DNA of 64,000 nt, taken from the NCBI GenBank assembly GCA_028819235.1, contig JAPPMC010000172.1, forward strand, positions 21,366 through 85,365, written 5' to 3'. The translations under genes and the position numbers were made by a program. Origin of the DNA: Bryobacterales bacterium (GTDB lineage Bacteria; Acidobacteriota; Terriglobia; Bryobacterales; UBA6623). Positions 1,515 through 56,231 of the stretch are shown one piece after another. Each line of letters begins with the position of its first letter. Position 1 is the stretch's first letter. The notes below the pieces were generated by a model. That model was given only the letters and a program-made list of their open reading frames with translations, did not search any database and was not told the DNA's origin.

Positions 1515-1588
1515 TCGAGTCGAGTATATCGGACGACTCCCAGAGCGACGTGCCGTAGGGCTCCGGACCGGGCCCGGCGCGGCCCGCG

Positions 1589-4135: not shown

Positions 4136-4285
4136 CCGACTTGCCACTGGCGAGTTAGGCCGCGCCGACCACCGATCGGGCACAACTCGCCGCCGAGGGC
4201 AGCGAGTCCGGCTCCTAAGTGTTGAGACGCACGACGCCCGGGAAGGGGTACGTGCGTGTCCGGCCTCGACCGCCACGCGGCCGAC

Positions 4286-5707: not shown

Positions 5708-5709
5708 GG

Positions 5710-12354: not shown

Positions 12355-12363
12355 CCGTTCCCA

Positions 12364-12395
12364 CCGGAGGGCGCCCTTTGAGGGGCGTCCTCCGG
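12364..12395 (+). terminator. GC-rich stem-loop 10 nt after the TonB-receptor stop (candidate intrinsic terminator without U-tract)
   Basis: CCGGAGGGCGCCC (12364-12376) pairs with GGGCGTCCTCCGG (12383-12395), 13 bp with one G.U. The loop is TTTGAG. No T-run follows, so termination activity is uncertain. Confidence 0.4.
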
Positions 12396-12725
12396 CATGC
12401 GCCAGCACTCCGACTCGAGCCGGGAATGGACTCCTGATCGTCCCGTGTCGCCCGGCACAACGGGTGGTCACCAGGGACAGCCGCCAGCAGGCAGGCTGGC
12501 CGATCGTCTTGCGCATGACGCGATCTGCCGGTCCGCCTCCCTGCGTTGAGACAGATACGTACGCTCGCGCGATACTCAATGTGTAGAGCCGTCGTGCGCA
12601 CCGGACATGAATCGGAAATGTCGGCACATCCACGGCACGTTGTCACGCGCGCGACGGCTGTCGAAGTGACTTCTTGGAAGTTGGCCCCTCCGTACCTCGA
12701 TCCCAAGGGTGAGTCCGCACACCCA

Positions 12726-31738: not shown

Positions 31739-32333
31739 CAATCTCCCCGCCGGAAACAGGCAGGACAGTGGCCGGTCCCGGACTTCGCCGCGGGGGCTCC
31801 ACCGGACGACCGTCCCGCGCAACTTCTCACGCACCCATCGTAACGGTTGGGTCGATCCGACGGAAGCCAGTCGGTCAGACCGAAGCCAACCGAACCGAGT
31901 CGGACGACGCCCGCGCGGGCGGCCACGCGCACGCGATCGGTGGAAGATGTCTGCCGGCCGCTCCGAGGCCTGCATCGGGCGCTGAGGCATTCGGAGACGA
32001 ATGGCAGTGGTTATCAGCAAGCTGCGCCCTGTCTCGCGCATAACAACGGTCGCTAGGTTGAGGTCCTCACGCTTGATCTCTCTTAGTGAAACGCTGGCGA
32101 CCGGCCAATACATCGGTCAACTTCCGCGTTTGGAGCGCCGAAAACCCGTGGATTGGTCCTGTTTCGGCGCTTGCGAGCGGTCTAGAACGACAGAAAAGTG
32201 CGGAAACGTACCGAAGACTGCCCCATCGTTGTCTCATCCGTGCTACGATCACTGCGGCATTAGCGCTTTATGCTGCAGAACGCATGGGGCGCTTCCAATG
32301 CCTTGTAGCAGGACAACGAAAATAGGAGGTCAA

Positions 32334-36900: not shown

Positions 36901-37236
36901 CAGAGCGAGGTCCACGACAGCCCGCTGGCCGACTTGGACCTGAAGGTCCGTGACCTCCTTGGTCGCAAAACCGTCCGCTGACACACGAACGGAGTACACG
37001 CCGGGAGTGACGTCTGGGTAGGTGTAATTCCCTGACTCGTTGGAAGACACCTGCTGCTCGGACCCTCTGTCGGGACTGATCAGGATCACATCCGCACCCG
37101 GGATAACCCCTCCGGTGGCGTCGGTTACCGTTCCAGACACCGAGGCGCTTCCGGACACCCCCTGACCGGATGCGCTGGTTGCCACCAGCAAGGCCATGGC
37201 TATGGCCTGGGCGATGGAATAGGATCGACTGATCAT
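33982..37236 (-). CDS. TonB-dependent receptor with carboxypeptidase-regulatory-like domain
   Basis: Start at MISRSYSIAQAIAMALLVATSASGQ, with GGAGG upstream. CarboxypepD_reg start VSGTVTDATGGVIPG. C-terminal barrel motif (PRLVQLGLKLVF). It is a paralogue of 9022-12354. Confidence 0.9.
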   Translation of the reverse strand: MISRSYSIAQAIAMALLVATSASGQGVSGSASVSGTVTDATGGVIPGADVILISPDRGSEQQVSSNESGNYTYPDVTPGVYSVRVSADGFATKEVTDLQVQVGQRAVVDLALDIGQVTEVVTVEAAAVLLETESNAIGTVVDSERVNELPLNGRNFLQLALLSGGTAPAEGRASFAGQIGHPGRFVVVGGVKAANNSYTINGIQVRGARGGELAINVSVANVDQFKVQSSFFMPDQGPNPSMVNVTTRGGTNEFHGELFEFVRNTALDARSFFAPGPEELKRNQFGFAVGGPVVPNKVWFRGGYEGMRERVAFSRGVFTPTQAMFGGDFSEDPFVIHDPDTLDREAGRRNPFPNQAVPRSRFNSVSENLLQYYLPGSSFHQRPNNLFVHPRNTVDDNQFNVRIDTQLTPKQSLFSQFIWSDNAAVRPGAFPLSGAFYPNEFAMWMIQHTYTISPKWISTLRLGVSRNQALFSNEAREVGDILTPLGITGTFDTRGVFAQGIQGFTGFGRSNGDLGNIDNNYQLDPGMTYISGNHQFRFGASIRYRRTWQQNANAGAHGGLRYNRVYSAQLATNAAGNLTPDGRSGNAFADYLLGTPDRGSTRGLPMLPYRHTQFMPYVQDTWKVRRNLTLNWGLSWFKDTIPNPQGRAADFPHGFDPATGLLEFAVLGQVDPRVIEPDSDNFAPRLGLAWQLDDKTVIRAGAGAYFSDMQLIELQFSAVGPPFTNSVDAINTGKLIPEFIPGVNIFPVVPLPPIDDNFAQNLPSGITPFTLQEEGRTPYVQQWNLSVQRTLGDNDLLELSYLGNSGHRQQNRYDNNQCQVGPDLRCDRSTRPYLRYNAILQSDFNANSSYNALIARYHHRMSGGLDFRVEYTFGKALYDGWELGGATNNQIATNRALDKGPTSFNVKHRGVVSAIWELPLGRGRRFGSGMGKAADAVVGGWNVTTIATFSNGLPILITVPNRTGSPFVGHRPNRTCSGNLSNVDLRRDRLFIDRSCFQNTERGFFGNSDRAPISGPGLNQFDIGIQKQVALGEARFVQFRVEMFNAFNHAQFLNPNGNVANRNFGLVGGTRRPRLVQLGLKLVF

Positions 37237-37436
37237 TGAACCTCCTTCAGGGACGCACACCGGTACACGCCATGCGACCGCCCGGATCCTACCACTTGCG
37301 GCAACCGCGACGGCGCACTTAAGGCGCGGTCATGACTCACCAGACGTCACTCGGGGCGCTGGGGCCCGGAGACGCCGATCCGGTCTCGTGGCGGTGACGA
37401 TTCGGCCCAGGGGTTCGCTCGCAGCGCGCGAGAAGA

Positions 37437-38936
37437 TCAGCCGCCGGGGACGGCCAGTAGCGCGACGTTGCCCGCGCGCTCGACAATCTGCGCGACGGTG
37501 GCGGTCATGGTCTCCACCAGTGGCGCGGGAAACACGCCCACTACGAGAACGATCACTGCCAGCGGCAGCAGAGTGGCGATCTCACGGCGCGTCATGTCCG
37601 GAAGCGAAGCCGCAATGGAGTTGCCAGGACGCCCCAAGACGACGCGCTGGAAGGTCCAGAGCATGTAGCCCGCCGCCAGCACGATCCCGCCCATGGAGAG
37701 AACGACCATCAGCAGGCTTCCATAAGAGGTTCCGACGAGCACCAGAAACTCGCCCACGAAATTCGCCGTGCCCGGCAATCCGAACGATGCGACGCAGAAT
37801 ATGCAGAAGAAGACTGCAAACCGCGGCATGGGCCTGTGGAGTCCCCCGTACGAGGCGATCTGCCGGTCGTGTGTCCGGTCGTATAGCAGGCCGGCGGCAA
37901 GGAAGAGCGCTCCGGTGGTGACCCCGTGGGTGAACATCTGCAGGATCGACCCCTGAATCCCCTCTTCATTGAAGGCAAAGATGCCCAACGTAACGAATCC
38001 CATGTGAGAGATGGACGAGTAGGCGATCAGCTTCTTCAGGTCAGACTGAGCGAGAGCCAGGCATCCTCCGTACAAGATGGCCACGATGGATGCCCACAGG
38101 ATGTACTTGGAGTATATGGCCGAGACCTCAGGCAGGATGGGCAGGCAGAAGCGGAGGAACCCGTAGCCACCCATCTTGAGCAGGATTCCCGCAAGGATCA
38201 CGCTGCCGGCCGTCGGGGCCTCGGAGTGCGCATCGGGCAGCCAAGAATGGAAGGGCACCATCGGGAGCTTGATTGCGAATCCCAAGACCAGTGCCAGAAA
38301 GATCCAGTGCTGGGCGCCTTCCTCGATCGTTGCTGCCGCCATGGCCTGAATGTCGAAGGTGCCTCCAGCCTGCATGTGGAGCCCGAGCAGGCCGACCAGG
38401 AGCAGGAGGCTGCCGGTCAGGCTGTACAGCACGAACTTCAGCCCGGCGGCAATCCGCTTCGGTCCGCCCCAGATCACGATCATGAAGTACATCGGCACCA
38501 TCGTGACTTCCCATAGCATGAAGAACAGGAAGGCGTCCATGGCCGCGAAGACCAGCAGCATGGAGCCCTCCGCGAGCAGGATCAAGCTCAGGTACGCCTT
38601 CACTTTCGTCGTGATCGAGCTCCAGGATGCCAGCACCGACAGCGGAGTAAGTATCGTCGTTAGCAGCACCAAGAGCATGCTCAGGCCGTCCAGCCCGACC
38701 GCGAACTCCACGTTGAAGGTCGGCATCCAAGCGGCCCTCCGAACGAACTGCATGCCGGATACAGCGGGATCGAATGCCTGCCACAGCGCCAGGGAAAGGG
38801 CCAAGCTCACAAGCGAACTCGCCATTGCCCAGTACCGGGCCCATTGGTCCCGCCGTGCCAGTACCACAGCGAGGATTCCCAAGAAGGGAACCGCGATCAG
38901 CGGGACCAGCAGGTTCTCGGAAACAAAAGACGGCAT
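37437..38936 (-). CDS. NuoM/NdhD-type proton-conducting antiporter-like membrane subunit (Proton_antipo_M family)
   Basis: 499 aa and polytopic. NuoM-type signature HSWLPDAHSEAPTAGSVILAGILLKMGGYGFLRF. It starts 18 nt after the NuoL-like gene. Confidence 0.9.
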   Translation of the reverse strand: MPSFVSENLLVPLIAVPFLGILAVVLARRDQWARYWAMASSLVSLALSLALWQAFDPAVSGMQFVRRAAWMPTFNVEFAVGLDGLSMLLVLLTTILTPLSVLASWSSITTKVKAYLSLILLAEGSMLLVFAAMDAFLFFMLWEVTMVPMYFMIVIWGGPKRIAAGLKFVLYSLTGSLLLLVGLLGLHMQAGGTFDIQAMAAATIEEGAQHWIFLALVLGFAIKLPMVPFHSWLPDAHSEAPTAGSVILAGILLKMGGYGFLRFCLPILPEVSAIYSKYILWASIVAILYGGCLALAQSDLKKLIAYSSISHMGFVTLGIFAFNEEGIQGSILQMFTHGVTTGALFLAAGLLYDRTHDRQIASYGGLHRPMPRFAVFFCIFCVASFGLPGTANFVGEFLVLVGTSYGSLLMVVLSMGGIVLAAGYMLWTFQRVVLGRPGNSIAASLPDMTRREIATLLPLAVIVLVVGVFPAPLVETMTATVAQIVERAGNVALLAVPGG

Positions 38937-38954
38937 GATCGGATCCCTTCTCTT

Positions 38955-41003
38955 CTACCCTGCAATCCACCAGTAAGCAAGCCCTATCACCAGAACCAGC
39001 CCGCACACGGCGATCAGCAGGTTCGAGCGAACCGTCCGAGGTTCCCTGCGCTGCAGCGCCCGCGCCGAGGCGACGGCAGCGAAGGCCGCCCGCTGGCCCG
39101 CGGAATCGACCCCCCGCAAGTCGATGATCCGAAACTGCCATGCCGATATGCCAATGGCGAGACTTGCCAGTCGCTGGATCGTGCCTTCGATAACGGCCTC
39201 CTCCAGCCGACGGCGCATCCCGCCCGAGAGGCGCAGCGTAAGGCGCACAGCGCCAGCCCGAAGGAGGACTTGCTCCAAGAAGATGGCCTCGACATAGTGG
39301 CGCAACCAGACCGCCATGCGGAGCAAGGGCCGCACCACGCAGGCGCGGTGAAGTTCGTCGATGTAGAGCTGGTTCAAGAACAGGACATACAGACGCATCA
39401 CCCACGGACGCTGCTGTAGCGGCTTGGCCACAGGGCGCCGATGTCGCACGTGCGCAAGCAACCATCCCGCCAACGCGGTGGCAAGTGCCACGCCCAATCC
39501 GGTCGAAATGCCCGCCGCGCGCGGAGGCGCAGATAGGCCCCCTTGTCCCACAACGGGGCCCAAGAACTCGGTGAAGCGGGACCACAGTGGCAGCATCAGC
39601 GCGGCGCCGCCTAGCGTCATCAATGCAACGACCGGCAGCTTGTTGGCCGCGAACAGCTTCGGAGCGGCGCCAGCCACACGAGGGGAAAACAGGCGCTGCA
39701 CGGCGCGATACGTGTAGCTGGCCGTGGTGAAGACCGCCAGGAGTGCGATGACCCAGAATGCGGCCCTCGCGCCTTCGGTGTGCTGCGCCGTCCACAGCCG
39801 CTCGTACGGACCCGTGAACAGCAGCAGCGGCGGAATGCAGGCCAAGACGAGAGCGCCGACGGCCAGCCTTCGCGAGCCGGATTCACCGTCCATCGCCGTC
39901 CCGTGCCCATGACTTGCCTGCCAGAGCGAGTTGCCGGTAGACAGGAACAGGAAGCCTTTCAGGAAGCCATGGGCCACAAGATGGAAGACCGCGGCCGTGA
40001 AAGCGCCCACCCCACAGGCGAAAACCATGAAGCCGATCTGGCTGATCGTCGAATAGGCCAACAGGCGCTTGATGTCGGACTGCGTAAGGGAAACCAAGGC
40101 TCCGTAGAGTGCTGTAGCCGCCCCGACTACGGCAATGGCCACCATCGCCGACGGGGCGAGCATCACAAGCGGACTCAGCCGGATGAGCAGGAATGGCCCG
40201 GCATTGACCATGGTTGCCGCATGAATCAGCGCTGAGACCGGCGTCGGAGCTTCCATGGCGTACGGCAGCCAGACGTGTAGCGGAAACTGCGCGGACTTCC
40301 CCATCGCCCCGCTCAGCAGACAAAGCGTGATGAGTGTGTTGCGACCGATTTCAACCCCGAGCAGACTGATGGTCTCTCCTGACATGCTCGCGGCCTGCGC
40401 CAGGATCTCGCGGATGTCGAGCGTCCCGTAGGTCGCGAAGGCAAGTACGACGCCGAAGCCCAACCCCACGTCGGCGACGGCGTTGACCAAGAACGACTTT
40501 GTGGCCGCCCGCGCGGCCGCCACGCGGCCGGCCCAGTGCGAGATCAGCAGATACGAGCAGATCCCCATCAGTTCCCAGCACATGTAGGTGACCAGCAGGT
40601 TGTTGCTGAGGACAAGCAGAGCCATGGCCCCCGTGAAGAGACCGATCAGGGCAAAGAACCGCCGGTACCGCGGATCTCCAATCATGTAGCGTGCCGAATA
40701 CACGTGGACGATGAAGCTGACCCCCGTCACCAGCACGAGCACGACTGCGGCCAGTTGGTCGAGCCACAAGCCAACCACGATGCGAAGGGAACCCACCTGC
40801 AGCAGTTCGTAGACCGGAATCTCCAAGGGGCCGTGGCCTGCAATCTGGAAGAGGCCCGCGACCGAGAGAACGAAGGAGCCCCCGACGGCGGGAATGCCGA
40901 CCAGGTGTGACCGGTCACCGATCGACCGGCCCGCCAGCGGCAGGAACAAGAATGCGGCCAGGGGCAATCCTGGGATGAGGGCGTAGGGCAACATGGCTAT
41001 CAA
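38955..41003 (-). CDS. NuoL/MrpA/DabB-type antiporter-like membrane subunit with long C-terminal extension
   Basis: 682 aa. NuoL/MrpA-type blocks (WELMGICSYLLISHW, KSAQFPLHVWLPYAMEAPTPVSALIHAATMVNAGPFLLIRL). The C-terminal ~150 aa are largely non-hydrophobic and Arg/Ala/Leu-rich (FLNQLYIDELHRA...), ending in one hydrophobic helix (NLLIAVCGLVLVIGLAYWWIAG). Confidence 0.9.
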   Translation of the reverse strand: MIAMLPYALIPGLPLAAFLFLPLAGRSIGDRSHLVGIPAVGGSFVLSVAGLFQIAGHGPLEIPVYELLQVGSLRIVVGLWLDQLAAVVLVLVTGVSFIVHVYSARYMIGDPRYRRFFALIGLFTGAMALLVLSNNLLVTYMCWELMGICSYLLISHWAGRVAAARAATKSFLVNAVADVGLGFGVVLAFATYGTLDIREILAQAASMSGETISLLGVEIGRNTLITLCLLSGAMGKSAQFPLHVWLPYAMEAPTPVSALIHAATMVNAGPFLLIRLSPLVMLAPSAMVAIAVVGAATALYGALVSLTQSDIKRLLAYSTISQIGFMVFACGVGAFTAAVFHLVAHGFLKGFLFLSTGNSLWQASHGHGTAMDGESGSRRLAVGALVLACIPPLLLFTGPYERLWTAQHTEGARAAFWVIALLAVFTTASYTYRAVQRLFSPRVAGAAPKLFAANKLPVVALMTLGGAALMLPLWSRFTEFLGPVVGQGGLSAPPRAAGISTGLGVALATALAGWLLAHVRHRRPVAKPLQQRPWVMRLYVLFLNQLYIDELHRACVVRPLLRMAVWLRHYVEAIFLEQVLLRAGAVRLTLRLSGGMRRRLEEAVIEGTIQRLASLAIGISAWQFRIIDLRGVDSAGQRAAFAAVASARALQRREPRTVRSNLLIAVCGLVLVIGLAYWWIAG

Positions 41004-41112
41004 CGCGCTTCCTGGGCAGATGGACTGCGCCCGACGCGACCATCCCGATCAGGCGCGAAGAGGGCCTGACCGGCAAGTGCCAAGAGCAAGAACGGCCCAC
41101 TGCCTGCCAAGG

Positions 41113-42579
41113 TCACGGCCCTCCAACCACCCGCAAGAACGCCGACATCAAGCCGTCGCCGAAGATCCCCAGGCCCAAGACCAAGCCCGCCGGGACGGCC
41201 ATGCTCAGCCGCACCGGCCACCCCAAGGCCCCGCGCAGCTCACCCGTGCGGGAGGCCTGCTGGGAGCGGAAGATCCTCTCAAGGACGGGGGCGAAATACC
41301 CCAGCGTCAGCAGAGAAGTCAACACCAGAGCCCCTGCTGCGAATGGATTGCCGGCCTCCATCGTCCCCAGCAGGATGTTCCACTTGCCGACGAACCCGCC
41401 TGTCGGCGGAATGCCCACCATCCCAACCGCCGCGATCACCAACGGGGCGATGACCCACGGATTCCGAATCTGGGCCCCGGCGATGTCGTCGATCGCTCGG
41501 ACCCCGTAGCGCCACGCGGCCACACCGGCGAAGATGAACAACCCGGCCTGCATCACCGCGTCGTTGACCAAGTAGTACAGTGCTCCGGCGGTGGCCTTGG
41601 TGCTGGATTGCCCAAGGCCGACCATGACAAGCCCCACGTGCGCAATGCCGCCATAGGCGAAGATCCGCTTGATCTCCGTCTGACGAATGGCTAGCAGGGC
41701 CCCGCCCACGGAAGCGACGATCCCCAAGCCTGAGACGACGGCATAGAGAATCTGCTCCGCGCCTGCATTTGCGGGGATGATCCCCCACAGCAGGATGCGG
41801 GCCCAAACCAAGATCGCCGTCTTCGTCACGAGCGCGGCGAGCAACGGAGCGGCCGAGTTCGGGGCGTGCGCATAGGCGTCGGGGAGCCAAGCGTGCACAG
41901 GCAGGAGGGCCATCTTGATGGCAAGACCGATGAGAATGAACGCAATGCCCCCGGCAGCCGCCTTCGACTCGAGCAAGCCCGGCAGGCGCTGAGCTAGGTC
42001 GGCGATATTCAGAGTGCCCGTCAGGGCGTAGAAATACGCCACTCCCAGCAGGTAGAACGCGGTTGCCAGCGCACCAATCATCAGGTACCGGAACGCCGAC
42101 AGCAATGCCCTGCCCCCGGGCACAGCGACCAACGCGTAGGAAGCCAGCGAGACCACTTCCAAGAACACGAAGATGTTGAACAGATCGCCGGCGTAGATTA
42201 CGCCGACAACTCCGGCGAGCAGCAGCAATACGGTCGTGTGGTACGGGACTGTTCGTCCCGCCAGCGAAGCCTCGCCCAGCGGCCCTGAGAATCCGAGGAC
42301 CAACAGCCCCACAAGGCTCGCAATAGCCGCCATCGTCGCCGACACCTCGTCGGCGACCCACTCGATGCCGAGCGGAGCCTGCCAGCCGCCGACCGCGTAG
42401 CGGACGGGTCCGAACGCCACCACGGAGCAGAGGCTGGCAATCGCCAGCAACGTCATCGCGACGGCCGCCGCCGCTGTAAGAGGCCGGCAGGCGGACCGCT
42501 TCCAGTGCCCGACCACGGGCATAGACACTGCGGCCGCCAAGGGGACCAAGAAGACCAAGGCCGGGAGAGACTCGGTCAC
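41113..42579 (-). CDS. mrpD: MrpD/MnhD (NuoN-like) antiporter-like membrane subunit
   Basis: 488 aa and polytopic. Block ALLPVHAWLPDAYAHAPNSAAPLLAALVTKTAILVWARIL. The GTG start overlaps the mrpC stop (GTGA at 42576-42579). Confidence 0.9.
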   Translation of the reverse strand: MTESLPALVFLVPLAAAVSMPVVGHWKRSACRPLTAAAAVAMTLLAIASLCSVVAFGPVRYAVGGWQAPLGIEWVADEVSATMAAIASLVGLLVLGFSGPLGEASLAGRTVPYHTTVLLLLAGVVGVIYAGDLFNIFVFLEVVSLASYALVAVPGGRALLSAFRYLMIGALATAFYLLGVAYFYALTGTLNIADLAQRLPGLLESKAAAGGIAFILIGLAIKMALLPVHAWLPDAYAHAPNSAAPLLAALVTKTAILVWARILLWGIIPANAGAEQILYAVVSGLGIVASVGGALLAIRQTEIKRIFAYGGIAHVGLVMVGLGQSSTKATAGALYYLVNDAVMQAGLFIFAGVAAWRYGVRAIDDIAGAQIRNPWVIAPLVIAAVGMVGIPPTGGFVGKWNILLGTMEAGNPFAAGALVLTSLLTLGYFAPVLERIFRSQQASRTGELRGALGWPVRLSMAVPAGLVLGLGIFGDGLMSAFLRVVGGP

Positions 42580-42953
42580 TGCAGCTTCTCCAAGATTGCT
42601 TCCTCATCGAAGCTGCCGAACCGCTTGTTGATCGCCGACACGATGCCCAACGAGACGCCCAGGGTGGCGACCTGCACGACGATCGCGGTCAGCGTTAGCA
42701 CGTGGGGCAATGGATTGACGAAGGCCTCGGCCTGGACCGGTCGGGACGGATCCAGCAGCACCGGGACGGTCGCCCCTTCCTTCGCGCTGATCGTCACGAA
42801 GTAGAAGATCACGCTGTTCTGGACCAGGTACAGACCGATGAGCTTCTTGATCAGATTGGGGTGGCTCACGCAGATGTAGAGGCCGGCCAGCAGGAGCAGG
42901 ATGAAGGTGACGAAATTGGGCCGCTGGATGGCCGCGTCCAGCAGCTCAGGCAT
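42576..42953 (-). CDS. mrpC: MrpC/MnhC (NuoK-like) subunit
   Basis: About 125 aa. MPELLDAAIQRPNFVTFILLLLAGLYICVSHPNLIKKLIGLYLVQNSVIFYFV... matches the MnhC/NuoK pattern (3 TM; L.K.iiGl.i....v.l). Start at the ATG at 42953, overlapping the mrpB stop by 8 nt. Confidence 0.85.
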   Translation of the reverse strand: MPELLDAAIQRPNFVTFILLLLAGLYICVSHPNLIKKLIGLYLVQNSVIFYFVTISAKEGATVPVLLDPSRPVQAEAFVNPLPHVLTLTAIVVQVATLGVSLGIVSAINKRFGSFDEEAILEKLQ

Positions 42954-43398
42954 GCTCGTCTCCTGTCTCACCAGCCCGCCACAGGCTGAACACGATCGAG
43001 ACCGAGGCAACGGCGATGTCAATTCCGACGCCAGCCTGGGTAAGCAGGATCGCCACATGGCGCCGTTCGGCCTCGTCCAGGCCTGGAATGACCAGTCCCG
43101 AATAATCCAGGTACGCTCCGCCCCCGATCAGGCACAGCCCGCCGATCCCCGCAAAGAGCAGCAGGCCGACACCGTCGCTGGCAAGGAGCCGCTCGGCCGC
43201 GTGCCGGGTCTCCCCCTGATCCCCGAAGACCAGCAGGTCCACCACCACGCTGGCGGCGAACATGACCCCAGCCACAAAGCCCCCTCCCGGGCCGTACTGA
43301 CCGAAGAACAGCACGTAGACGGCGAAGATCTGCACCATCGGCACCAGCAGCCGCACCGTGCGGCGGCAGATGAGACTGTCGTACGGCGGCTGGATCAT
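42946..43398 (-). CDS. mrpB: MnhB/MrpB domain subunit
   Basis: About 150 aa. RTVRLLVPMVQIFAVYVLFFGQYGPGGGFVAGVMFAASVVVDLLVFG is the MnhB-domain hallmark (G...PGGGF.gG). The ATG at 43398 overlaps the upstream stop (ATGA). Confidence 0.8.
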   Translation of the reverse strand: MIQPPYDSLICRRTVRLLVPMVQIFAVYVLFFGQYGPGGGFVAGVMFAASVVVDLLVFGDQGETRHAAERLLASDGVGLLLFAGIGGLCLIGGGAYLDYSGLVIPGLDEAERRHVAILLTQAGVGIDIAVASVSIVFSLWRAGETGDEHA

Positions 43399-43925
43399 TC
43401 CGAGTCCCTCCTCAGCAGGAGCCAACACGCGATCCCAGATGTGAAGACGACGACCGTCTCGATGAGCGTGTCGAGGGCGCGGTAGTCCATCAGCACTGCC
43501 GTCACGATGTTCGTCGTTTGGGTCTCGGCATACGCCCTCGTGAGGTACTCGGGCGACACGTGGACACTGGCAGGCGCCTGAGGATCGCCGAGTTGGGGCA
43601 GGTCGTTCGCCGCGTAGAGCAGCAGCCCCGCCAGCACGGGCAGCACGACTACGGCCGCCAGCGGAGGGGACGCCCTTCGGAACCGTATGCCGCCCCGACC
43701 AGCGTTGAAGAGGGTCAGCAGGAAGAAGACCGTCGCCAACCCGGCACCAACAACCGCCTCAACGAACGCAACGTCGACGGCCCCCAGCCAGGCCCAAACC
43801 AGCGCCAGAAAGAAGCTGTACGAACCCAGAAGCAGCACTGCGCTGAGGAGATCCTTGGCTACGATTGCGGCACCTGCGGTCAGCAGCAGCAGAAGCAGGA
43901 GCGGCAGCTCGAAGGAATACGTCAT
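43395..43925 (-). CDS. DUF4040/MbhD-MbhE-like subunit (equivalent to the MrpA C-terminal domain)
   Basis: 176 aa. The hydrophobic N-half (LLSAVLLLGSYSFFLALVWAWLGAVDVAFVEAVVGAGLATVFFLL) and C-half (TNIVTAVLMDYRALDTLIETVVVFTSGIA) match the MbhD/MbhE-type pattern (V.ail.dyRg.DTl.E). The ATG overlaps the mrpG stop (ATGA). Confidence 0.8.
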   Translation of the reverse strand: MTYSFELPLLLLLLLTAGAAIVAKDLLSAVLLLGSYSFFLALVWAWLGAVDVAFVEAVVGAGLATVFFLLTLFNAGRGGIRFRRASPPLAAVVVLPVLAGLLLYAANDLPQLGDPQAPASVHVSPEYLTRAYAETQTTNIVTAVLMDYRALDTLIETVVVFTSGIACWLLLRRDSE

Positions 43926-44221
43926 CGACGGTCCTCCGCCACCGGTCGATGGCCGGTCCGCAGCGCCGCCCTGACAGTCGCGTGGGCAATGACTGGATTC
44001 AGCAGGTACAGCAGGGCCAGCACGACCAGGATACGGAGGGTGCTCGTGCTCATGCCATGGTGGACCGCCAGTCCGAGCAGTAGGAAGAACGCCCCCAGCG
44101 AGTCGGTGAGCGATACCGCGTGCGCCCTCGTGTAGACATCCGGGAGCCGCACCATGCCAATGGCTGCGACGATCAGGAAGAACAGGCCAGTCCCAACCAG
44201 CAGCGTGACTACCAGTGACAT
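43922..44221 (-). CDS. mrpG: MrpG/MnhG subunit
   Basis: 99 aa. LFFLIVAAIGMVRLPDVYTRAHAVSLTDSLGAFFLLLGLAV is the MnhG/PhaG signature (G..Rl.D.y.R.Ha..k..tlG). Its ATG abuts the mrpF stop (TAGATG). Confidence 0.85.
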   Translation of the reverse strand: MSLVVTLLVGTGLFFLIVAAIGMVRLPDVYTRAHAVSLTDSLGAFFLLLGLAVHHGMSTSTLRILVVLALLYLLNPVIAHATVRAALRTGHRPVAEDRR

Positions 44222-44488
44222 CTAGCGAGCCCCCCTCTGTTCCAGGTACTTCGCGATCGCCAGTGCTCCGACCAAGTTCAGCAAGGCATAGCCAGTGGAG
44301 ATGTCCACGAAGACTTCCACCCTGTCATAGACCGTGCCGATGACCACCACGAGGATGATGGCCTTGGTGGAGATGCCATTCAGCCCGAGCATGCGATCGA
44401 ATATTGTCGGTCCGCGCACGACCCTATACAGATAGAGCACGATCAGCACAGCAAGGACGTTGAGCACAAGCAGCAGCGATAGGTTCAC
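44222..44488 (-). CDS. mrpF: MrpF/MnhF subunit
   Basis: 88 aa. LYRVVRGPTIFDRMLGLNGISTKAIILVVVIG is the MrpF/PhaF signature (R...GPt..DR..a.d....). The GTG start overlaps the mrpE stop (GTGA at 44485-44488). Confidence 0.85.
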   Translation of the reverse strand: MNLSLLLVLNVLAVLIVLYLYRVVRGPTIFDRMLGLNGISTKAIILVVVIGTVYDRVEVFVDISTGYALLNLVGALAIAKYLEQRGAR

Positions 44489-45024
44489 GATCGGCCCCCT
44501 TGTGCACGGAAGACCCCGGCAACGCGGTGCTCCAGCTTCTTGGCGGAGGCGACTGCGCCCTTCTCACCGTCGATGGCATGCACGATAAGGCCCTCGCGCG
44601 AGGCCTCAACCGTGACGGTTCCCGGCGTCAGGGTGATCGAGTTCCCCAGCAGCAGGATCGCCCTGTCGTCATCGAGACCTGTCTTGTGCCGGATCAGGAC
44701 CGGGCGGATCGGAAGTCTCGGATGGAGGATGAGGTACGCGACGCGCAGGCCACTGACGATGATCTGCCCGCACAGCCATGGGAAGTAGAGCAACGCGTGC
44801 GCCCAGCGCACGGGCCGGCCGGAAGCCGGCCGTGCCCCGAAGTTGATCACGGCCACGCCCAGCGCTGCCAGCAGACCCACCAACAAGTGGACCGGTTCGG
44901 CACTCTCCGACACCAACAGCCAGAGGGCGAACAGGACCGCAGCCCAGAACAAGGCTCGGCGCGTGAGTTGGTTCCTCACGGCGTCACGCGGCCTCCGAAA
45001 ACTCCAGCGGTTCCCAAGTCGCAT
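44485..45024 (-). CDS. mrpE: MrpE/MnhE subunit
   Basis: MnhE-like: LFWAAVLFALWLLVSES...HLLVGLLAALGVAV, then PGTVTVEASREGLIVHAID (typical PGT...d......l.vH.ld). The ATG at 45024 would overlap dabA by 41 nt. An in-frame GTG at 44979, 4 nt after the dabA stop, is an equally plausible start. Confidence 0.8.
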   Translation of the reverse strand: MRLGNRWSFRRPRDAVRNQLTRRALFWAAVLFALWLLVSESAEPVHLLVGLLAALGVAVINFGARPASGRPVRWAHALLYFPWLCGQIIVSGLRVAYLILHPRLPIRPVLIRHKTGLDDDRAILLLGNSITLTPGTVTVEASREGLIVHAIDGEKGAVASAKKLEHRVAGVFRAQGGRS

Positions 45025-47755
45025 CGGTGTGGTACCGCTGGAAGCGCGGCGCCGAAGGGTCTAGTGCCACTAGGTTCACCCACTGGTTGTGGAAGAGAGT
45101 TTGCAGGATCTCGTGCTTGCGGATGATCGCCGAGATCCTCTCGATCGGGGCTTCAATGATGGCCAGCAGGCGCATCGGCTCGTGATACCTGCGCTGGCCG
45201 TCGATTACGCCCTGCACAGGAAGGCCGCCGCGCAGATCGCTCTGGCTACCCAGCATGACACCAACGCCACCCACGACGTTGTGGATGACTTTGCTTCCGC
45301 TGCCGTACTTCCAAGGAGAGACCGCGGAGAAGTAGTACTCCGTGTTGATCCATTCTCCGACAATCAGCGGAGCGGTCATGATCTTCTCCAGATCCTCCCC
45401 CTTGGTGTCCGCAATCGGATCGTACGAGTGCAGGAAGACGCGCGACTCCAAGTTCAGGCCGAGCGTACGCGCTCGACGGCCGATCAGGAACGCGGCGTTG
45501 CTCGAAAGCCCCCATTCCGGGCGGGGGTTGGCCCAGTCGACGCTGCGGGATAGCGCGTGCAGGGCCGCTCCCCGCGGCCTTAGCGGCCCTGGGGCTCCGG
45601 GGATCCTACGCAGTCGCTCTGCCGCTTGGTGCCCCGTGACCACAGCCAGATCGCGGTCGAGGGCGCGCAAGTCTTCCCTGTGGCTGGCGGGAACATCTTG
45701 GCGGTCGTAGAATGTGACCCGGTCCGTCGTGGTGTCGTGCTTTCCCGCCACGAACCACACATCCTCGGGAATCGGCTGCCCGCGCTCGGCCAAGATGCGC
45801 CGCACCCTAGGGTCGTTGGCCATTCCAACGAAGGCCCGAGCGTTCGGGTCGCCGTGCGCCCCGCCGCATGCCCCGCAGTTGTACGCGGCAGCGTATGGGT
45901 TGTTCTCCGACTCCGCGCCGTGCCCGCAGGCGACGATGATCCGCCCCAACCCGCGCGTCAGCCCGATCATGCGCAGGCCACCGCCAACCATGGCCGCCTG
46001 CTCTTCGAGCGTGAACCCCACCGGTGGCTTGACCGGAGCATCCGACGGATCGGCGGACACGCGGGTCTGCACACCGCCGTCGAAGCGCCGGCGCATCCAT
46101 CCGAGCAGCCGCGCGTACGCGGACTGGGCCAGCGTCCGGCCGAGCAGGCCGATGCTGAAGAGAGCGCCGACGGCGTCGACCAGCACGAAGGCACCGAGGG
46201 GGCTCTGCTTGAGGTCGTGAAACAGCGTGTCGCGCAGCCTGCGCCAGCGGGTCCCGGATGCATAGCCTCGCAGGGCGCCCTCCTGACCACTCCGCACCGC
46301 CTCGTTCACGGTCTTGGGAGGCTTGAGAAGAACGGGGCACAGTGCCAGCCGGTCCTCGCTGTCGAAGGCCTGGTGGCTGATGGGCACTCCGAAGAATCCT
46401 GCGTAGCCGAATGTCTCGTAATTCCCCTGCTTCTCCAGGTGGCGGCGGAACGGCTCGGATCGGGCGTCAATGCAGAAAATCATCTGCGCAGCGGGCCTTT
46501 CCCGGCCGCTGACGTCGGGTGGCCGGTGAGCCGCAAAGCGCCGCAGGAAGCGGACGCGGAAGGAATCCTCATAGGCCTCGAGCCAGATCGGGCCCTGTCC
46601 CCCTTCTGGTAGGCGGTGGGCGTAGCCAAGGAGCGCCTCCGCACCCTTCGCCGACAGGGCGCGGATCTGGGCGGGTGCCAAGTTCAGGGCGGTAGCCAGC
46701 GCGTACAGCTCGCCGACCGAGCCCGTGCATACGGGGAACTCCTGGGGACCGGCGGCGTGAATGCAGGCGCGGACCGACGGCAGCAAGGGTTCAGACGCGT
46801 CCCCTCGCTCGGCGCAAGCGGCGCGCACGAATTCCGTCTCGTAGAAGAGGCGGACTGCGAGATACTCGACGACATCCGCCGGATGCTCCGCCTGAGCTGG
46901 ATACGTGGGGTTCTCGCTCCTCCACCGCAGAAAACCCGTCCATCCGGGGAGTTGCGCAAACGCGCGGGTCTGGTAGTCAAACCAGCGGTCCTCGGGAATG
47001 CCCAGCACACCGAGGGACCGGTGCACAGCGTCCGTGGCAGATTCCGGGAGGGCATCGATCTTGGCCACCGCACCCAAGATGCCGGCTAAGCGGTGTCCCG
47101 GATCCGTTCGCGCGAGAAGCCGCCAGCTGCTGTAGAACCCACATTCGCGGCCAGGCATTTGCCAGCCCGCCAATCCCTCGTCGAGGAACGCCGCAATCCA
47201 CTTGATCATCTGGCCGTCGACGGACTCCACAACCGAAGTTCCGACAGACCGGTCAAGCCAATCTCCAAGAGTGTGCGCGGGCGGCAGGTCGCCGCTGGGG
47301 ACACCCTCCGGTTCAGGGTCAATCTGGAGGCACACCGCCTCGACGGCCTCGAGCAGTTCGGTACGCCCCTCTCGGCTGGCGGACCATTGCAACAGCGAAC
47401 CGCTCAATGGCTTTACACCCACGGTCAGGGCTCCCCAGGCCACGTCGCGAGGCGAGAGGATTCGGTTGCCAGCCCTGACGGAAGGTCCGTCCAGGTCTGG
47501 CCCGAGGCGGTCCAGAGCGCTGCTCAGGCTCTCCGCGCGAATCCTCCCCTGGCGCCAGAACTCCCGGAACTCGCCGTTGGACAGGTACCCCCGACCGCCA
47601 ATGGTCGCGGAAGCCTCGCGGACGGCGTCGTCAAACGGCAGGAACTCGAATCCCCGCAGGGGGTTTCGGTACGCGAACGTGCGCAGCGGCCAAATCTGCG
47701 CAGCAGACCGGCAAGCATCGACAATCTGGCCGCGGAGGTCCGTATCTTGGCTCAT
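44984..47755 (-). CDS. dabA: DabA (DUF2309/UPF0753) putative inorganic-carbon pump subunit, beta-carbonic-anhydrase-like
   Basis: 923 aa. The N-terminal WPLRTFAYRNPLRGFEFLPFDDAV is the hallmark DUF2309 start. FCIDARSEPFRRHLE (Cys428-x-Asp430-x-Arg432) and GHGAESENNPYAAAYNCGACGG (His612, Cys627) reproduce the Cys-x-Asp...His-x14-Cys Zn-site pattern described for DabA. Confidence 0.9.
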   Translation of the reverse strand: MSQDTDLRGQIVDACRSAAQIWPLRTFAYRNPLRGFEFLPFDDAVREASATIGGRGYLSNGEFREFWRQGRIRAESLSSALDRLGPDLDGPSVRAGNRILSPRDVAWGALTVGVKPLSGSLLQWSASREGRTELLEAVEAVCLQIDPEPEGVPSGDLPPAHTLGDWLDRSVGTSVVESVDGQMIKWIAAFLDEGLAGWQMPGRECGFYSSWRLLARTDPGHRLAGILGAVAKIDALPESATDAVHRSLGVLGIPEDRWFDYQTRAFAQLPGWTGFLRWRSENPTYPAQAEHPADVVEYLAVRLFYETEFVRAACAERGDASEPLLPSVRACIHAAGPQEFPVCTGSVGELYALATALNLAPAQIRALSAKGAEALLGYAHRLPEGGQGPIWLEAYEDSFRVRFLRRFAAHRPPDVSGRERPAAQMIFCIDARSEPFRRHLEKQGNYETFGYAGFFGVPISHQAFDSEDRLALCPVLLKPPKTVNEAVRSGQEGALRGYASGTRWRRLRDTLFHDLKQSPLGAFVLVDAVGALFSIGLLGRTLAQSAYARLLGWMRRRFDGGVQTRVSADPSDAPVKPPVGFTLEEQAAMVGGGLRMIGLTRGLGRIIVACGHGAESENNPYAAAYNCGACGGAHGDPNARAFVGMANDPRVRRILAERGQPIPEDVWFVAGKHDTTTDRVTFYDRQDVPASHREDLRALDRDLAVVTGHQAAERLRRIPGAPGPLRPRGAALHALSRSVDWANPRPEWGLSSNAAFLIGRRARTLGLNLESRVFLHSYDPIADTKGEDLEKIMTAPLIVGEWINTEYYFSAVSPWKYGSGSKVIHNVVGGVGVMLGSQSDLRGGLPVQGVIDGQRRYHEPMRLLAIIEAPIERISAIIRKHEILQTLFHNQWVNLVALDPSAPRFQRYHTDATWEPLEFSEAA

Positions 47756-47798
47756 GCTTGCGGCCTTTGGTCGGGGCTCACGCGCATCAGCCGACTAG

Positions 47799-49382
47799 CT
47801 AGCGTACTTTGCGCACGCGTGCGGCCGCCGGGTCACCCGACAGCGGACGGTGCTCATCCAACCCCTGCACTACTAGCTTAGATCCATCCGCCTCGAACTC
47901 CTTGGCCGTGTCCGCGATGCGGTCCATCACCGTATGGTCGACCAACCTTGTGCCCGAAAGATCCAACGTCACTTCCGGACGGCCCTTCAGGCCGGCCAGC
48001 CGCTTCTTCAGGCCAATCCAGGTGCTGAACACGGCAGCACCCTGAACCGCCACGGTCGCCCCTGTAGGGGTCTCCTCCACCGCAGCGCGCAGCCGGAACA
48101 GCGAGCCGACCGGCGCGCCGTTTATGACGTGGATCAGTGCCTTCACCAAGATCCCGATGGCGATGCCCGACAGCAAGTCGGTGGCAAGCACGCCGAGGAT
48201 CGTTGAAACGAAGATCACCAGCTGCTCGCGGCCCACGTGGTACATGTGGGCGAACTCTTTGGGAGAAGCCAAGCGGAAGCCAGTAAACACCAGCATTGCC
48301 CCGAGCGCGGCGAGGGGAATCTGGTTGATCAGGCCCGGCGCGAGCGCAACGAAGACCAGCAGGAATAGCCCGTGGAACATGTTGGCGAAGCGAGTCTTGG
48401 CGCCGTTGTCAATGTTGGCCTTGCTTCGCACGATCTCGGAGATCATCGGCAGGCCGCCCACGAAGGCCGCGAGCGTGTTGCCGACGCCCACGGCCAGAAG
48501 GTCGCCGTCGTAGTTCGTCTTCCTGCGGTAGGGGTCGATCTCGTCGACGGCTTTGGCGCTCAGCAGGGACTCAAGGCTGCCGATCAGAGAGAAGAGCACG
48601 ATGTACTGAACCCCAGTGGCAGTCAGCACCCCAGAAAAGTCCGGGAAGGTTAGGGCGCCGAACATGTTGCTGGGAACATTGACCAGGAACTCGCCGCCGA
48701 GCCCGTAGCGCATGCCCATAGGGACGGCGAAGATCAGGACGATGACCGGAGCGGGGATGGCCCCCAGCAGCGGAACGCGCTTCAGGAGGGGGAAGCCGAA
48801 CAGCAGCACGAGGCTCACGATCCCGATCAGACCCACCTGAGGGTTCATCTCCATCACGAACGTTGGGATCTTTGCGAGCAATTCCAAGGGAGATCCCTCG
48901 TTGCCCAAACCCAGGGTGACCGGGACTTGCTTGGCGATGATGATCACGCCGATCGAGGCCAGCAAGCCGTGCACGGCCGCACTCGGGAAGAACTCCCCGA
49001 GGATTCCAGCGCGGAATACGCCAAAGAGGGTCTGGATCAGACCCGCGACCACGCCAACCCCCAGTGCGAGTCGGTACGCCTGGAAGTCGGCGGCCGGATC
49101 GCGGCCGGCTGTGAACCCGAAATCGGTCACGCACCCGATCGCTATTACGATCAGGCCAGCCGCGGGGCCCTTGATCGTCAGTTCCGAATTGCTGAAGAAT
49201 GTCGAGAGGACACCGCCGATGATGGCGGTGAAGATTCCTGCAATCGCGGGGTAGCCGCAAGCTAGGGAGATGCCCAGGCAGAGCGGCAGTGCAATAAGGA
49301 AGACGAGGAATCCCGAGAGTAGGTCGGACCCCCAGTATCGGCGAAGGCCGGCGGCGTTTCCGACTGGTTGCGCAGTTGTCAT
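47799..49382 (-). CDS. SulP family inorganic anion (sulfate/bicarbonate-type) transporter with C-terminal STAS domain
   Basis: 527 aa. SulP blocks (DLLSGFLVFLIALPLCLGISLACGYPAIAGIFTAIIGG; VGNTLAAFVGGLPMISEIVRSKANIDNGAKTRF). STAS-like tail (VAVQGAAVFSTWIGLKKRL...TLDLSGTRLVDHTVMDRI). Its stop lies 43 nt upstream of the dabA start. Confidence 0.9.
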   Translation of the reverse strand: MTTAQPVGNAAGLRRYWGSDLLSGFLVFLIALPLCLGISLACGYPAIAGIFTAIIGGVLSTFFSNSELTIKGPAAGLIVIAIGCVTDFGFTAGRDPAADFQAYRLALGVGVVAGLIQTLFGVFRAGILGEFFPSAAVHGLLASIGVIIIAKQVPVTLGLGNEGSPLELLAKIPTFVMEMNPQVGLIGIVSLVLLFGFPLLKRVPLLGAIPAPVIVLIFAVPMGMRYGLGGEFLVNVPSNMFGALTFPDFSGVLTATGVQYIVLFSLIGSLESLLSAKAVDEIDPYRRKTNYDGDLLAVGVGNTLAAFVGGLPMISEIVRSKANIDNGAKTRFANMFHGLFLLVFVALAPGLINQIPLAALGAMLVFTGFRLASPKEFAHMYHVGREQLVIFVSTILGVLATDLLSGIAIGILVKALIHVINGAPVGSLFRLRAAVEETPTGATVAVQGAAVFSTWIGLKKRLAGLKGRPEVTLDLSGTRLVDHTVMDRIADTAKEFEADGSKLVVQGLDEHRPLSGDPAAARVRKVR

Positions 49383-56154: not shown

Positions 56155-56231
56155 CCGGGCCGCGGCGTCCGAGCGGGACCGGACAAACGGAACTGCAGAC
56201 AAGCCAAATGTTGCTGAGACAATCTGGACTC

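Follow-up and report, generated by a model that had tools for sequence, protein, structure and literature searches.

A conserved DabA-Mrp-NuoL-NuoM gene cluster in a Bryobacterales genome: a candidate ion-coupled machine for inorganic-carbon uptake

Within the 64,000 nucleotides of Bryobacterales contig JAPPMC010000172.1 (assembly GCA_028819235.1) that were analyzed here, hereafter the window, eleven genes lie in a row on the minus strand: a gene for a SulP-family transporter, a gene for a DabA-type protein (DUF2309, PF10070), seven Mrp-type antiporter genes, and genes for a NuoL-like and a NuoM-like subunit (Table 1). An initial annotation of this DNA read the cluster as a candidate multisubunit pump in which DabA works with Mrp-type and complex-I-type membrane subunits. 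The window list of open reading frames (ORFs) reproduces all eleven co-directional genes at the coordinates first given for them, Pfam bears out every family assignment with E-values far beyond chance, and the gene junctions hold as first described.

Table 1. The eleven genes of the cluster, in the order in which they are read along the minus strand (window coordinates)
Gene	Coordinates	Strand	Product and Pfam match
sulP	49382-47799	minus	527 aa; PF00916 1.4e-53; weak STAS match
dabA	47755-44984	minus	923 aa; PF10070 8.7e-249, full length
mrpE (MNHE)	45024-44485	minus	179 aa by longest ORF; PF01899 1.1e-32
mrpF	44488-44222	minus	88 aa; PF04066 7.3e-13
mrpG	44221-43922	minus	99 aa; PF03334 1.7e-21
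mbhD/E fusion (DUF4040)	43925-43395	minus	176 aa; PF13244 1.2e-16 + PF20501 3.8e-10
mrpB (mnhB)	43428-42946	minus	160 aa; PF04039 9.9e-20
mrpC (NuoK-like, Oxidored_q2)	42953-42576	minus	125 aa from ATG 42953; PF00420 2.7e-16
mrpD-type	42579-41113	minus	488 aa; PF00361
nuoL-like	41003-38955	minus	679-682 aa; PF00662+PF00361
nuoM-like	38936-37437	minus	499 aa; PF00361

In the window, neighboring genes overlap by 4 nt at the mrpE/mrpF, mrpG/mbhDE, and mrpC/mrpD junctions, mrpF and mrpG abut, and mrpB and mrpC overlap by 8 nt once the mrpC start is set at its internal ATG; the longest mrpC ORF (from 43058) is over-extended, and the chosen ATG fits both the translation and the 125-aa orthologues of two related clusters, L082 and L083. 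Spacers of 43, 109, and 18 nt separate sulP from dabA, mrpD from nuoL, and nuoL from nuoM, respectively, and for the nuoL-like gene ATG 40994 is a more likely start than TTG 41003. The 41-nt overlap of dabA and mrpE hinges on the longest-ORF start of mrpE. A junction scan found no terminator-like or promoter-like site at any window junction, and the 109-nt spacer has no unusual structure (z = -0.73). The plus strand shows a strongly positive AT skew (0.24-0.27) over window positions 38000-44000, across the membrane-protein genes. Hydrophobic residues have T-rich codons and the genes are coded on the minus strand, a combination that fits the skew, which marks no separate feature.

The same arrangement recurs in many other genomes. 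A DabA-seeded survey, in which one genome per GTDB species was scanned with a DabA alignment, yielded 80 loci with 10-kb flanks, and the six-frame ORFs of these flanks were searched with the eleven window proteins. The adjacency of dabA and mrp genes, which had been singled out beforehand as the point on which the initial annotation could fail, is kept in every one of the 30 loci with a DabA at least 45% identical to that of the window. The order dabA-mrpE-F-G-mbhD/E-mnhB-mrpC-mrpD-nuoL-nuoM, on one strand, is found in 30 of 30, with 22 of these loci complete and 8 cut by a contig edge, none of them contradictory. They span six phyla (Acidobacteriota, Nitrospirota, Nitrospinota, Planctomycetota, Binatia, and Gammaproteobacteria), and the hosts include Bryobacterales and other Acidobacteriota, Nitrospirales/Nitrospira, Nitrospina/Nitrospinaceae, Pirellulaceae, Phycisphaerae, Ca. 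Binatia, and, among the gammaproteobacteria, Arenicellaceae and others; the nearest genome locus (L001) belongs to a Bryobacterales metagenome-assembled genome (MAG) with a DabA 88% identical to ours. The remaining loci, with DabAs 28-42% identical, hold no Mrp genes, and their readable flanks have the classical arrangement of dabB then dabA or a fused gene; these hosts are haloarchaea, Actinobacteria, Bacteroidota, Legionella, Melainabacteria, Chloroflexia, and others. In a neighbor-joining (NJ) tree the Mrp-linked DabAs are monophyletic, and none of the loci of this clade encodes a DabB-type partner.

Metagenomes give the same picture from other starting points. An MbhD/E-seeded metagenome scan produced 80 further loci, in which dabA lies upstream in 47 of 47 informative cases, a nuoL-like gene downstream in 38 of 38, and a nuoM-like gene in 22 of 22. 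A NuoL-like-seeded search additionally recovered two homologues at 49-50% identity (L082 and L083), both in the same type of cluster, with Pfam assignments on every gene. In five loci (L009, L011, L012, L021, and L024) the end of mrpD shares 4 nt with the start of nuoL, and dabA and mrpE share 4 nt in three gammaproteobacterial loci (L016, L017, and L019), overlaps that point to translational coupling in several lineages. The conserved linkage of dabA, mrp, nuoL, and nuoM can thus be regarded as firmly established.

Some clusters carry additional genes. Nitrospirales clusters have a small divergent MpsC gene (PF10057, E = 3e-35) between sulP and dabA, which we find in L005, L007, L010, L012, L020, L023, L026, L035, L082 (2133-2534), and L083 (2375-2743); there is no MpsC gene in the window. 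In S. aureus, MpsC is encoded by the last of the three genes of the mpsABC operon. One Nitrospirales lineage has an insertion between dabA and mrpE, a gene of about 500 aa that is judged from its sequence to be a serine protease of DegP/HtrA type; it follows dabA in L018 (12925-14550), L022 (13037-14536), L035 (13168-14703), and L049 (13133-14665).

Such conserved order could reflect one machine or several. In the latter case the cluster would encode separate, co-regulated devices, namely a three-subunit DAB of DabA, NuoL, and NuoM, with NuoL in the role of DabB and NuoM at the place of DabC; a minimal Mrp antiporter that holds the sodium gradient; and an independent SulP Na+/HCO3- symporter, whose genes travel together because the devices cooperate, without protein contact. 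We regard this explanation as rather unlikely. Independent machines would be expected to show shuffling or separate occurrence, yet the seven mrp genes stand between dabA and nuoLM in every lineage across the six phyla, and zero loci combine a clade dabA with nuoLM minus mrp or with mrp minus nuoLM. The translational coupling of mrpD to nuoL in several lineages also argues against separate devices, whereas the 109-nt gap between these two genes in the window argues for them.

DabA itself, a beta-carbonic-anhydrase-like cytoplasmic subunit, matches its family over the full length. The window protein scores 828 bits against PF10070 (cut-off 25), covering profile positions 3-747 of 747, and its sole sequence match in the PDB is DabA2 of H. 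neapolitanus (9rd0_A, 7e-109); no NCBIfam model matches it. The residues C428, D430, R432, H612, and C627 of its beta-carbonic-anhydrase-type Zn site are invariant in 18- and 49-member alignments of the clade as well as in classical DabAs. A recent cryo-electron microscopy (cryo-EM) preprint on DAB1 describes the Zn ligands of DabA, an Asp-Arg dyad, a lid motif GI(A/G)GFFG, and a membrane-dipping elbow (10.64898/2026.05.01.722082); in that structure the loop NNPYESALDCGACGG links transmembrane helix 11 (TM11) of DabB to the DabA active site, and a DW(xxx)RPEWGL loop touches both the DabA elbow and DabB (10.64898/2026.05.01.722082). In the window protein we find GYAGFFG at 450-456, NNPYAAAYNCGACGG at 618-632, and DWANPRPEWGL at 740-750, all invariant or nearly so in 49 relatives; the clade consensus of the two loops is NNPYxAAxxCGACGG (618-632) and DWANxRPEWGL (740-750).

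An AlphaFold2 (AF2) model of the window DabA (predicted local distance difference test, pLDDT, 78) places a hairpin with a hydrophobic middle helix at residues 492-558, where the elbow would be expected; its helices (492-516, 519-542, and 544-558) have pLDDT values of about 60-74, and we consider the hairpin a candidate elbow. A Foldseek search of this model against the PDB gave no significant match, to 9rd0 and CsoSCA no more than to others, a result that we take as uninformative. Together, the conserved catalytic residues and the coupling motifs specific to DAB, with the hairpin as a candidate elbow, make the window DabA appear equipped for coupled catalysis on a NuoL-like partner. An apparent change of DabB-contact residues in the NNPY loop of the clade (A622 and N626 in the window versus E704 and D708 in T. 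albus) was considered and rejected, because the residue corresponding to D708 is still Asp in most of the clade and the one corresponding to E704 varies in all DabAs.

How large is this branch of the family? A library of 50%-identity representatives contains 1804 DabA-family clusters scoring at or below 1e-30, only about 15 of which are at least 45% identical to the window DabA; the Mrp-linked clade is thus a small part of DabA diversity, though one easily found in marine and soil metagenomes. Elsewhere in the family DabB and DabA are fused into one polypeptide, as in actinobacterial loci L039, L056, L062, and L070 (ORFs of about 4.2 kb) and in many library representatives such as P0257, P0271, and P0287 (1300-1470 aa).

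The likely membrane partner of DabA is not a DabB. Three antiporter-like subunits had been claimed for the cluster, and Pfam indeed finds PF00361 three times. Of the "NuoL/MrpA-like" label given to the largest of them, the NuoL part stood and the MrpA part did not: the protein scores 440.8 bits against TIGR01974 (NDH_I_L), above the curated NCBIfam cut-off of 407.5, and both L and M are of complex-I type. The PDB scores agree (NdhF1 275 bits, E. coli NuoL 245, MrpA about 140, DabB2 134), and the PDB matches of the AF2 model are exclusively L-type chains of complex I. In an NJ tree with few outgroups and without bootstrap, which included 40 DabB proteins from classical dabB-dabA loci, the NuoL-like cluster proteins are sister to E. 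coli NuoL and fall outside a monophyletic DabB clade. The 499-aa gene described as NuoM-like is a genuine NuoM type (TIGR01972, NDH_I_M, 579.5 bits against a cut-off of 263.8); it scores 415 bits with Paracoccus NuoM (8qby_M) and only about 97 with MrpD, and all six canonical channel residues (E143, K223, K254, H311, H337, and E396) are conserved. By these sequence comparisons the L and M subunits are genuine complex-I types rather than MrpA, MrpD, or DabB types. The 488-aa subunit, by comparison, has its best PDB matches in MrpD (7qru_D, 192 bits), MbsH (6u8y_H, 171), and MbhH (6cfw_H, 161), and conserves E141, K222, K253, and K399. NCBI protein P0121, which is 100% identical to the NuoL-like protein, is annotated "NADH-quinone oxidoreductase subunit L" [Bryobacterales bacterium]; public names of this kind for L and M arise because both proteins meet curated complex I thresholds.

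Two features of the NuoL-like protein set it apart from DabB. First, it conserves E144, D178, K236, H261, H341, H345, and K349, and the TM5 Glu (E144) and TM7 Lys (K229) are kept in 24 of 24 L-type proteins of the clusters; DabB has a hydrophobic residue in place of the TM5 Glu, and its TM7 Lys has often been exchanged (Q/K/R or hydrophobic across both positions). Second, the protein aligns with E. coli NuoL over residues 13-567, up to the start of the lateral helix, and then runs on for about 150 more residues. Counted from the E. coli 525 column to the C-terminus, the cluster L-type proteins have a median of 148 residues, compared with 89 for E. coli NuoL and 28 for DabB, and the lateral element comprises about 120 residues in the NuoL-like protein and about 66 in E. 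coli NuoL, with none in DabB. AF2 models the C-terminus as helices 533-627 (95 residues) and 633-652 followed by a transmembrane helix at 656-681, the TM16 anchor, and the 120 closest database homologues are all 644-753 aa long. Retention of E144 and K229 and the long lateral element are features that would suit a subunit working in a row of neighbors. A lateral element of about 120 residues exceeds what clamping a single neighbor would need, which again speaks against a three-subunit DAB separate from Mrp. In support of such a DAB, DabC overlays the NuoM helices beside NuoL in the DAB1 structure, giving a precedent for a DabA-L-M complex.

The Mrp genes complete the picture. The initial annotation proposed a complete Mrp-type gene set, and MNHE, MrpF, MrpG, MbhD/E, MnhB, MrpC, and MrpD are all present, with the NuoL-like protein covering the N-terminal part of MrpA. 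MrpG passes TIGR01300 (74.4 bits, cut-off 63.1) and MbhD/E passes NF009159 (159 bits, cut-off 141), aligning to about positions 600-790 of full-length MrpA models; by this alignment the MbhD/E-type protein corresponds to the C-terminal domain of MrpA, encoded here by a gene of its own. The Mrp set has no MrpA N-terminal domain of its own, and the neighboring NuoL-type gene would supply that part. The Mrp genes follow an irregular order, something also seen in group 3 and Mbh clusters. That Mrp modules with a single MrpD exist in Mbh, Mbs, and archaeal Mrp (6cfw_H, 6u8y_H) fits the idea of separate machines, as does the cooperation of bicA with Na+/H+ antiporters that has been proposed for A. 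halophytica and "Ca. Nitrospira alkalitolerans" (PMC7784846).

The SulP transporter is less tightly bound to the cluster. It had been suggested as a possible bicarbonate-type carrier. Its closest solved relative is the TM domain of BicA (6ki1_A), at a weak 71 bits, and the protein scores 112.6 bits against the NCBIfam BicA model (NF050096), far under the cut-off of 880. Bicarbonate is a candidate substrate. Of the informative loci, 20 of 26 from genomes and 15 of 25 from metagenomes have sulP upstream of dabA, and sulP is a frequent but non-universal first gene of the cluster. A role of SulP as a carrier of sulfate released by sulfatases encoded nearby is disfavored by the conserved sulP-dabA linkage in unrelated genomes.

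A natural deletion offers a view of which genes belong together. Nitrospirales MAGs L049 and L035 share 85% DNA identity through sulP, mpsC, dabA, and htrA, and at L049 14669-14735, as compared with L035 14707-22601, there is a clean loss of about 7.9 kb that removes exactly mrpE through nuoM. Between mpsC and dabA, L049 has about 7.1 kb extra (2817-9949) with dabB, an ORF of 412 aa, and another copy of dabA on the opposite strand. The seven mrp genes and nuoLM act as one dispensable unit in L049, and a self-contained DAB stands in their place. Joint loss of mrp and nuoLM is not what separate machines would predict; as a point on the other side, the middle gene of this DAB1-type locus is still a degenerate PF00361 protein. 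This middle ORF (6456-7694, minus) matches PF00361 weakly (29.7 bits against a threshold of 21.5) and appears to be a degenerate antiporter-like protein of the DabC kind, which suggests that DabC is a decayed NuoM-like subunit; a counterpart in the DabC position of L080 (8498-9904) has no Pfam match. In L035, dabA (9953-12978) consists of two overlapping ORFs within an otherwise intact cluster, and L049 is split at about the same place. The two genomes may share a frameshift, or long-read assembly may have made the same error twice. A reading of the L049 dabA as a pseudogene left behind after loss of the membrane module was downgraded because L035 is split similarly and frameshift errors in long-read MAGs are plausible.

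Co-inheritance was assessed from the distance matrices of ten proteins in 21 complete clusters. All matrices are correlated (r = 0.53-0.93), and DabA correlates most highly with the NuoL-like protein (r = 0.93). After removal of the background, residual correlations are 0.39 for DabA-NuoL (the highest for DabA), 0.44 for NuoM-MrpD, and 0.28 for MrpF-MrpG. These values are suggestive of an order DabA-L, M-D, F-G and are not proof of contact.

A single complex is suggested by the order of the genes and their translational coupling, by their co-inheritance and loss as a block, and by the NuoL-type features, and we lean, modestly, toward one DabA-NuoL-NuoM-Mrp assembly that would couple ion flux to vectorial CO2 hydration. 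A single arm is proposed because the partner of DabA keeps its coupling residues and its long helix, and because it is in the constant company of NuoM, MrpD, and Mrp subunits without an MrpA N-terminal domain. The eleven genes would then provide one inorganic-carbon uptake system with a hybrid membrane complex as its core, in which a row of NuoL, NuoM, and MrpD types would be joined to MrpC, MbhD/E, MrpB, and MrpE, F, and G. The subunits might stand in the order L-M-D-(C, A', B)-(E, F, G), with DabA on L and with the very long lateral helix of the NuoL type clamping the row. As the only peripheral module, DabA would dock on the cytoplasmic face of the NuoL type, as it does on DabB. The initial annotation had placed DabA in the operon position of an Mbh-type catalytic module; this analogy proved weak, as the cluster is without a NuoH/MbhM-like docking subunit. 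DabA would more probably sit on the NuoL-type subunit than at the Mrp small-subunit end, because its DabB-contact motifs are all conserved and because such a docking subunit is missing.

How might such an arm work? Ion flux through the arm may drive a conformational cycle that gates the buried Zn site of DabA, such that CO2 diffusing inward would be irreversibly hydrated to bicarbonate. Gating of the Zn site by a proton-conducting NuoL-like subunit is something that we infer from the solved DAB structures, and the window DabA would use the same loops. At the Mrp end, Na+ would be swapped for H+, giving a sodium circuit that could energize SulP if SulP is a Na+/HCO3- symporter. Two directions of flow can be considered. 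In one, H+ would move in and Na+ out, driven by the proton-motive force as in DAB; in the other, Na+ would move in and H+ out, and the proton of hydration would be pulled away, as proposed for CupA.

A number of observations weigh against a single assembly. Gene order by itself would look alike for a single complex and for several complexes under tight co-regulation. Archaeal Mrp and Mbh modules run with a single MrpD-type subunit, and mrpE through mrpD could suffice alone. In L002 the nuoL-nuoM pair is inverted together as a separate unit, a rearrangement that separate machines would readily accommodate, and an htrA gene separates dabA from mrpE in three Nitrospirales loci. AF2 gives the predicted lateral helix of the NuoL-like protein a pLDDT of 42-60, a low confidence that is expected because the helix is isolated and amphipathic. 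The NuoL-like protein also lacks the short cytosolic helices that follow TM11 in DabB, having no insertion relative to E. coli NuoL; these helices are DabA contacts in DabB, and the docking mode must thus differ in detail. The residual clade dabA of L049 is in three ORFs, where, given the split dabA of L035, assembly errors are possible. Additionally, the mirror-tree analysis gives a weak signal that depends on protein length and comes without a valid p-value.

Comparison with known systems helps to define what is new about the proposed assembly. It is closest to DAB1/DAB2 and MpsAB(C) (PDB 9rd0; 10.64898/2026.03.13.711513, 10.64898/2026.05.01.722082), with which it shares a full-length PF10070 protein, the Zn site, the lid and coupling motifs, a predicted hairpin as a candidate elbow, an encoded NuoL-homologous subunit, and, beside the Nitrospirales clusters, MpsC; DabC at the NuoM position of DAB1 parallels NuoL-NuoM here. 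Unlike DAB, the cluster has no DabB-clade gene, and its dabA is followed by mrpE rather than preceded by dabB, the neighbors of dabA being sulP and mrpE. Its L subunit is of complex-I type, with the lateral helix, TM5 Glu, and TM7 Lys that DabB is without, and it lacks the post-TM11 cytosolic helices of DabB; its M subunit is a full NuoM and apparently a functional channel, whereas DabC is degenerate; and seven Mrp genes are added. The cyanobacterial complexes NDH-1MS and NDH-1MS' (CupA/CupB on NdhF3-NdhD3 or NdhF4-NdhD4; 6tjv) likewise place CO2 hydration on NuoL/NuoM homologues of a complex-I-like membrane arm, and the logic of vectorial CO2 hydration proposed here would be the same. The hydrating protein of the cluster, however, is DabA, which is unrelated to CupA/ChpY. 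The cluster has no CupA-like ORF, and it lacks a redox module as well as NuoH, A, and J. Neither its L nor its M subunit belongs to the F3/D3 subtype, as L scores 211 bits against TIGR01960 (ndhF3_CO2; cut-off 588.7) and 146 bits with 6tjv_F versus 275 with NdhF1, and M scores 240 bits with 6tjv_D versus 298 with NdhD1.

Among Mrp (CPA3) antiporters, group 3, represented by A. halophytica mrpCD1D2EFGAB, resembles the cluster in having all Mrp functions, several antiporter-like subunits, and an association with SulP/BicA that has been noted before. The cluster differs in its Mbh-like order (E F G A' B C D), in having NuoL and NuoM types, not MrpA and MrpD types, as its two additional antiporter-like subunits, and in a DabA linkage that is obligatory in every sampled locus. 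Its mrpEFG-D/E-B-C-D(H) order equals mbhA-H of the Mbh/Mbs (Mbx)/Fpo/complex I group, with MbhD and MbhE families and an MrpD near MbhH and MbsH, and the row of L-, M-, and N-like subunits resembles the complex I P-module. The difference lies in the periphery: the module here is non-redox and would probably dock on an antiporter-like subunit, not at the Q-module interface. No NuoH/MbhM-like, NiFe, Fe-S, or quinone-module genes occur in the cluster or its flanks, and NuoH, A, J, and N and NuoB, C, D, I, E, F, and G are absent from the cluster, the window flanks, and the 30 related loci.

Pieces of this locus have been seen before. In "Ca. Nitrospira alkalitolerans" a bicA-mrp-nuoL/M-nhaB-motB locus has been described, with nuoL/M read as extra Mrp subunits in the main-text passages on it (Daebeler et al. 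2020, PMC7784846); those passages make no mention of DabA. The surveyed Nitrospirales loci likewise hold SulP, mrp, nuoL/M, and OmpA/MotB genes together with a CitMHS-family antiporter gene that may equal nhaB, and in them dabA, often with mpsC, lies between sulP and mrpE; the cluster is very probably the same type of locus. In the COGNAT study of 2017, the ybcC genes of clade C upstream of a nuoL homologue are often near SulP and NuoM, and the legend and supplement list no Mrp small-subunit COG (PMC5700660). A 2026 survey of autotrophs that use the reductive tricarboxylic acid (rTCA) cycle reports that one of the two DAC (DabA-type) genes in N. moscoviensis and N. tepida is without a membrane partner and may act alone (PMC13147460). 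These partnerless Nitrospira genes probably belong to the Mrp-linked clade, whose DabA has thus probably been read as an orphan. In the two 2026 cryo-EM preprints and in 10.1101/476713, Mrp features as a family name only. The initial annotation knew of no described DabA-Mrp assembly, and none was found in the literature searched, subscription-only papers being outside its scope. A DAB-type vectorial carbonic anhydrase in which an Mrp/complex-I-like arm replaces DabB therefore appears undescribed, earlier papers not having joined DabA, Mrp, and nuoL/M. Tentatively, and with confidence that stops somewhat short of the halfway mark, we propose that it may be a third independently assembled machine for vectorial CO2 hydration, beside DabAB and CupA-NDH-1, built on a redox-free arm coupled to Na+/H+ exchange and with DabA as its sole periphery.

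What would a soil bacterium do with such a machine? The flanks of the cluster are unrelated to it, with a CarboxypepD_reg/OMP barrel downstream and a sulfatase and a DUF7133/HEAT/cytochrome c protein upstream. The other window genes include five sulfatases (25220-26614, 49683-51092, 56151-57719, 59625-61049, and 61955-63535), three PSCyt/PSD1-DUF1501 pairs, several CarboxypepD_reg outer-membrane barrels, and a PQQ dehydrogenase. Of the three DUF1501 genes (within window 129-8430 and 27744-32113), two lie with PSCyt1/PSCyt2/PSD1 "planctomycete cytochrome" genes and the third (129-1514) adjoins a CarboxypepD_reg barrel; large CarboxypepD_reg/OMP_b-brl_4 barrels are encoded at 1589-4276, 9022-12354, and 33982-37260. 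There are no carbon-fixation genes in the window. From this gene content the host looks like a glycan-degrading heterotroph, which fits the known presence of DAB/Mps in heterotrophs, and the likely role of the cluster in it is the supply or retention of bicarbonate for carboxylases.

A device for pH and sodium homeostasis is the other function that we have weighed. DabA would hydrate metabolic CO2, SulP would export the bicarbonate, and Mrp/NuoLM would swap Na+ for H+, for a net acidification of the cytoplasm and expulsion of sodium under alkaline or saline stress. We think this quite improbable. Tolerance of alkali and salt is, to be sure, what Mrp antiporters are best known for (PMC5703873). 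Marine or haloalkaline organisms are numerous among the carriers (Nitrospina, marine Nitrospirales, Arenicellaceae, and Pirellulaceae), many metagenome loci bear marine or sediment record names, and SulP, with bicarbonate as a candidate substrate, may transport in either direction; the apparent heterotrophy of the host, with many sulfatase and glycan-uptake genes in place of carbon fixation, could be read the same way. Bryobacterales, however, are typical of acidic to neutral soils. SulP is missing from about one quarter to 40% of the clusters, so bicarbonate export is not obligatory, and the clade is most diverse in rTCA autotrophs that need inorganic carbon, namely Nitrospira and Nitrospina. 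Characterized DAB/Mps systems, moreover, serve inorganic-carbon supply, in heterotrophs too (PMC6689103; 10.1101/476713).

An improved understanding of this cluster would bear on several fields. DAB is currently seen as DabA plus one stand-alone NuoL-like proton channel, a view that underlies both 2026 cryo-EM studies. The swap to a nine-gene arm within a DabA clade provides a natural system for studying ion-to-enzyme transmission, sodium-driven CO2 hydration, and the reuse of complex I modules. If the proposed assembly is real, it would connect three groups in evolution, the Mrp antiporters, the P-modules of complex I, and the reduced pumps with DabB and DabC, in which DabC would be a decayed NuoM. 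There is also a practical consequence for genome annotation: the NuoL and NuoM proteins of the cluster meet complex I thresholds, and metabolic reconstructions will thus miscount them as respiratory complex I. Complex I copy counts in Nitrospira, Nitrospina, and Acidobacteria may include the non-respiratory L/M pair of the cluster. The occurrence of the clade in major nitrite oxidizers (Nitrospira and Nitrospina) and in abundant soil and marine heterotrophs means that it bears on how these organisms acquire inorganic carbon. In Nitrospira and Nitrospina the cluster would serve autotrophic carbon acquisition and, if the assembly works as proposed, would be the principal means by which nitrite oxidizers of the Nitrospira and Nitrospina types take up CO2.

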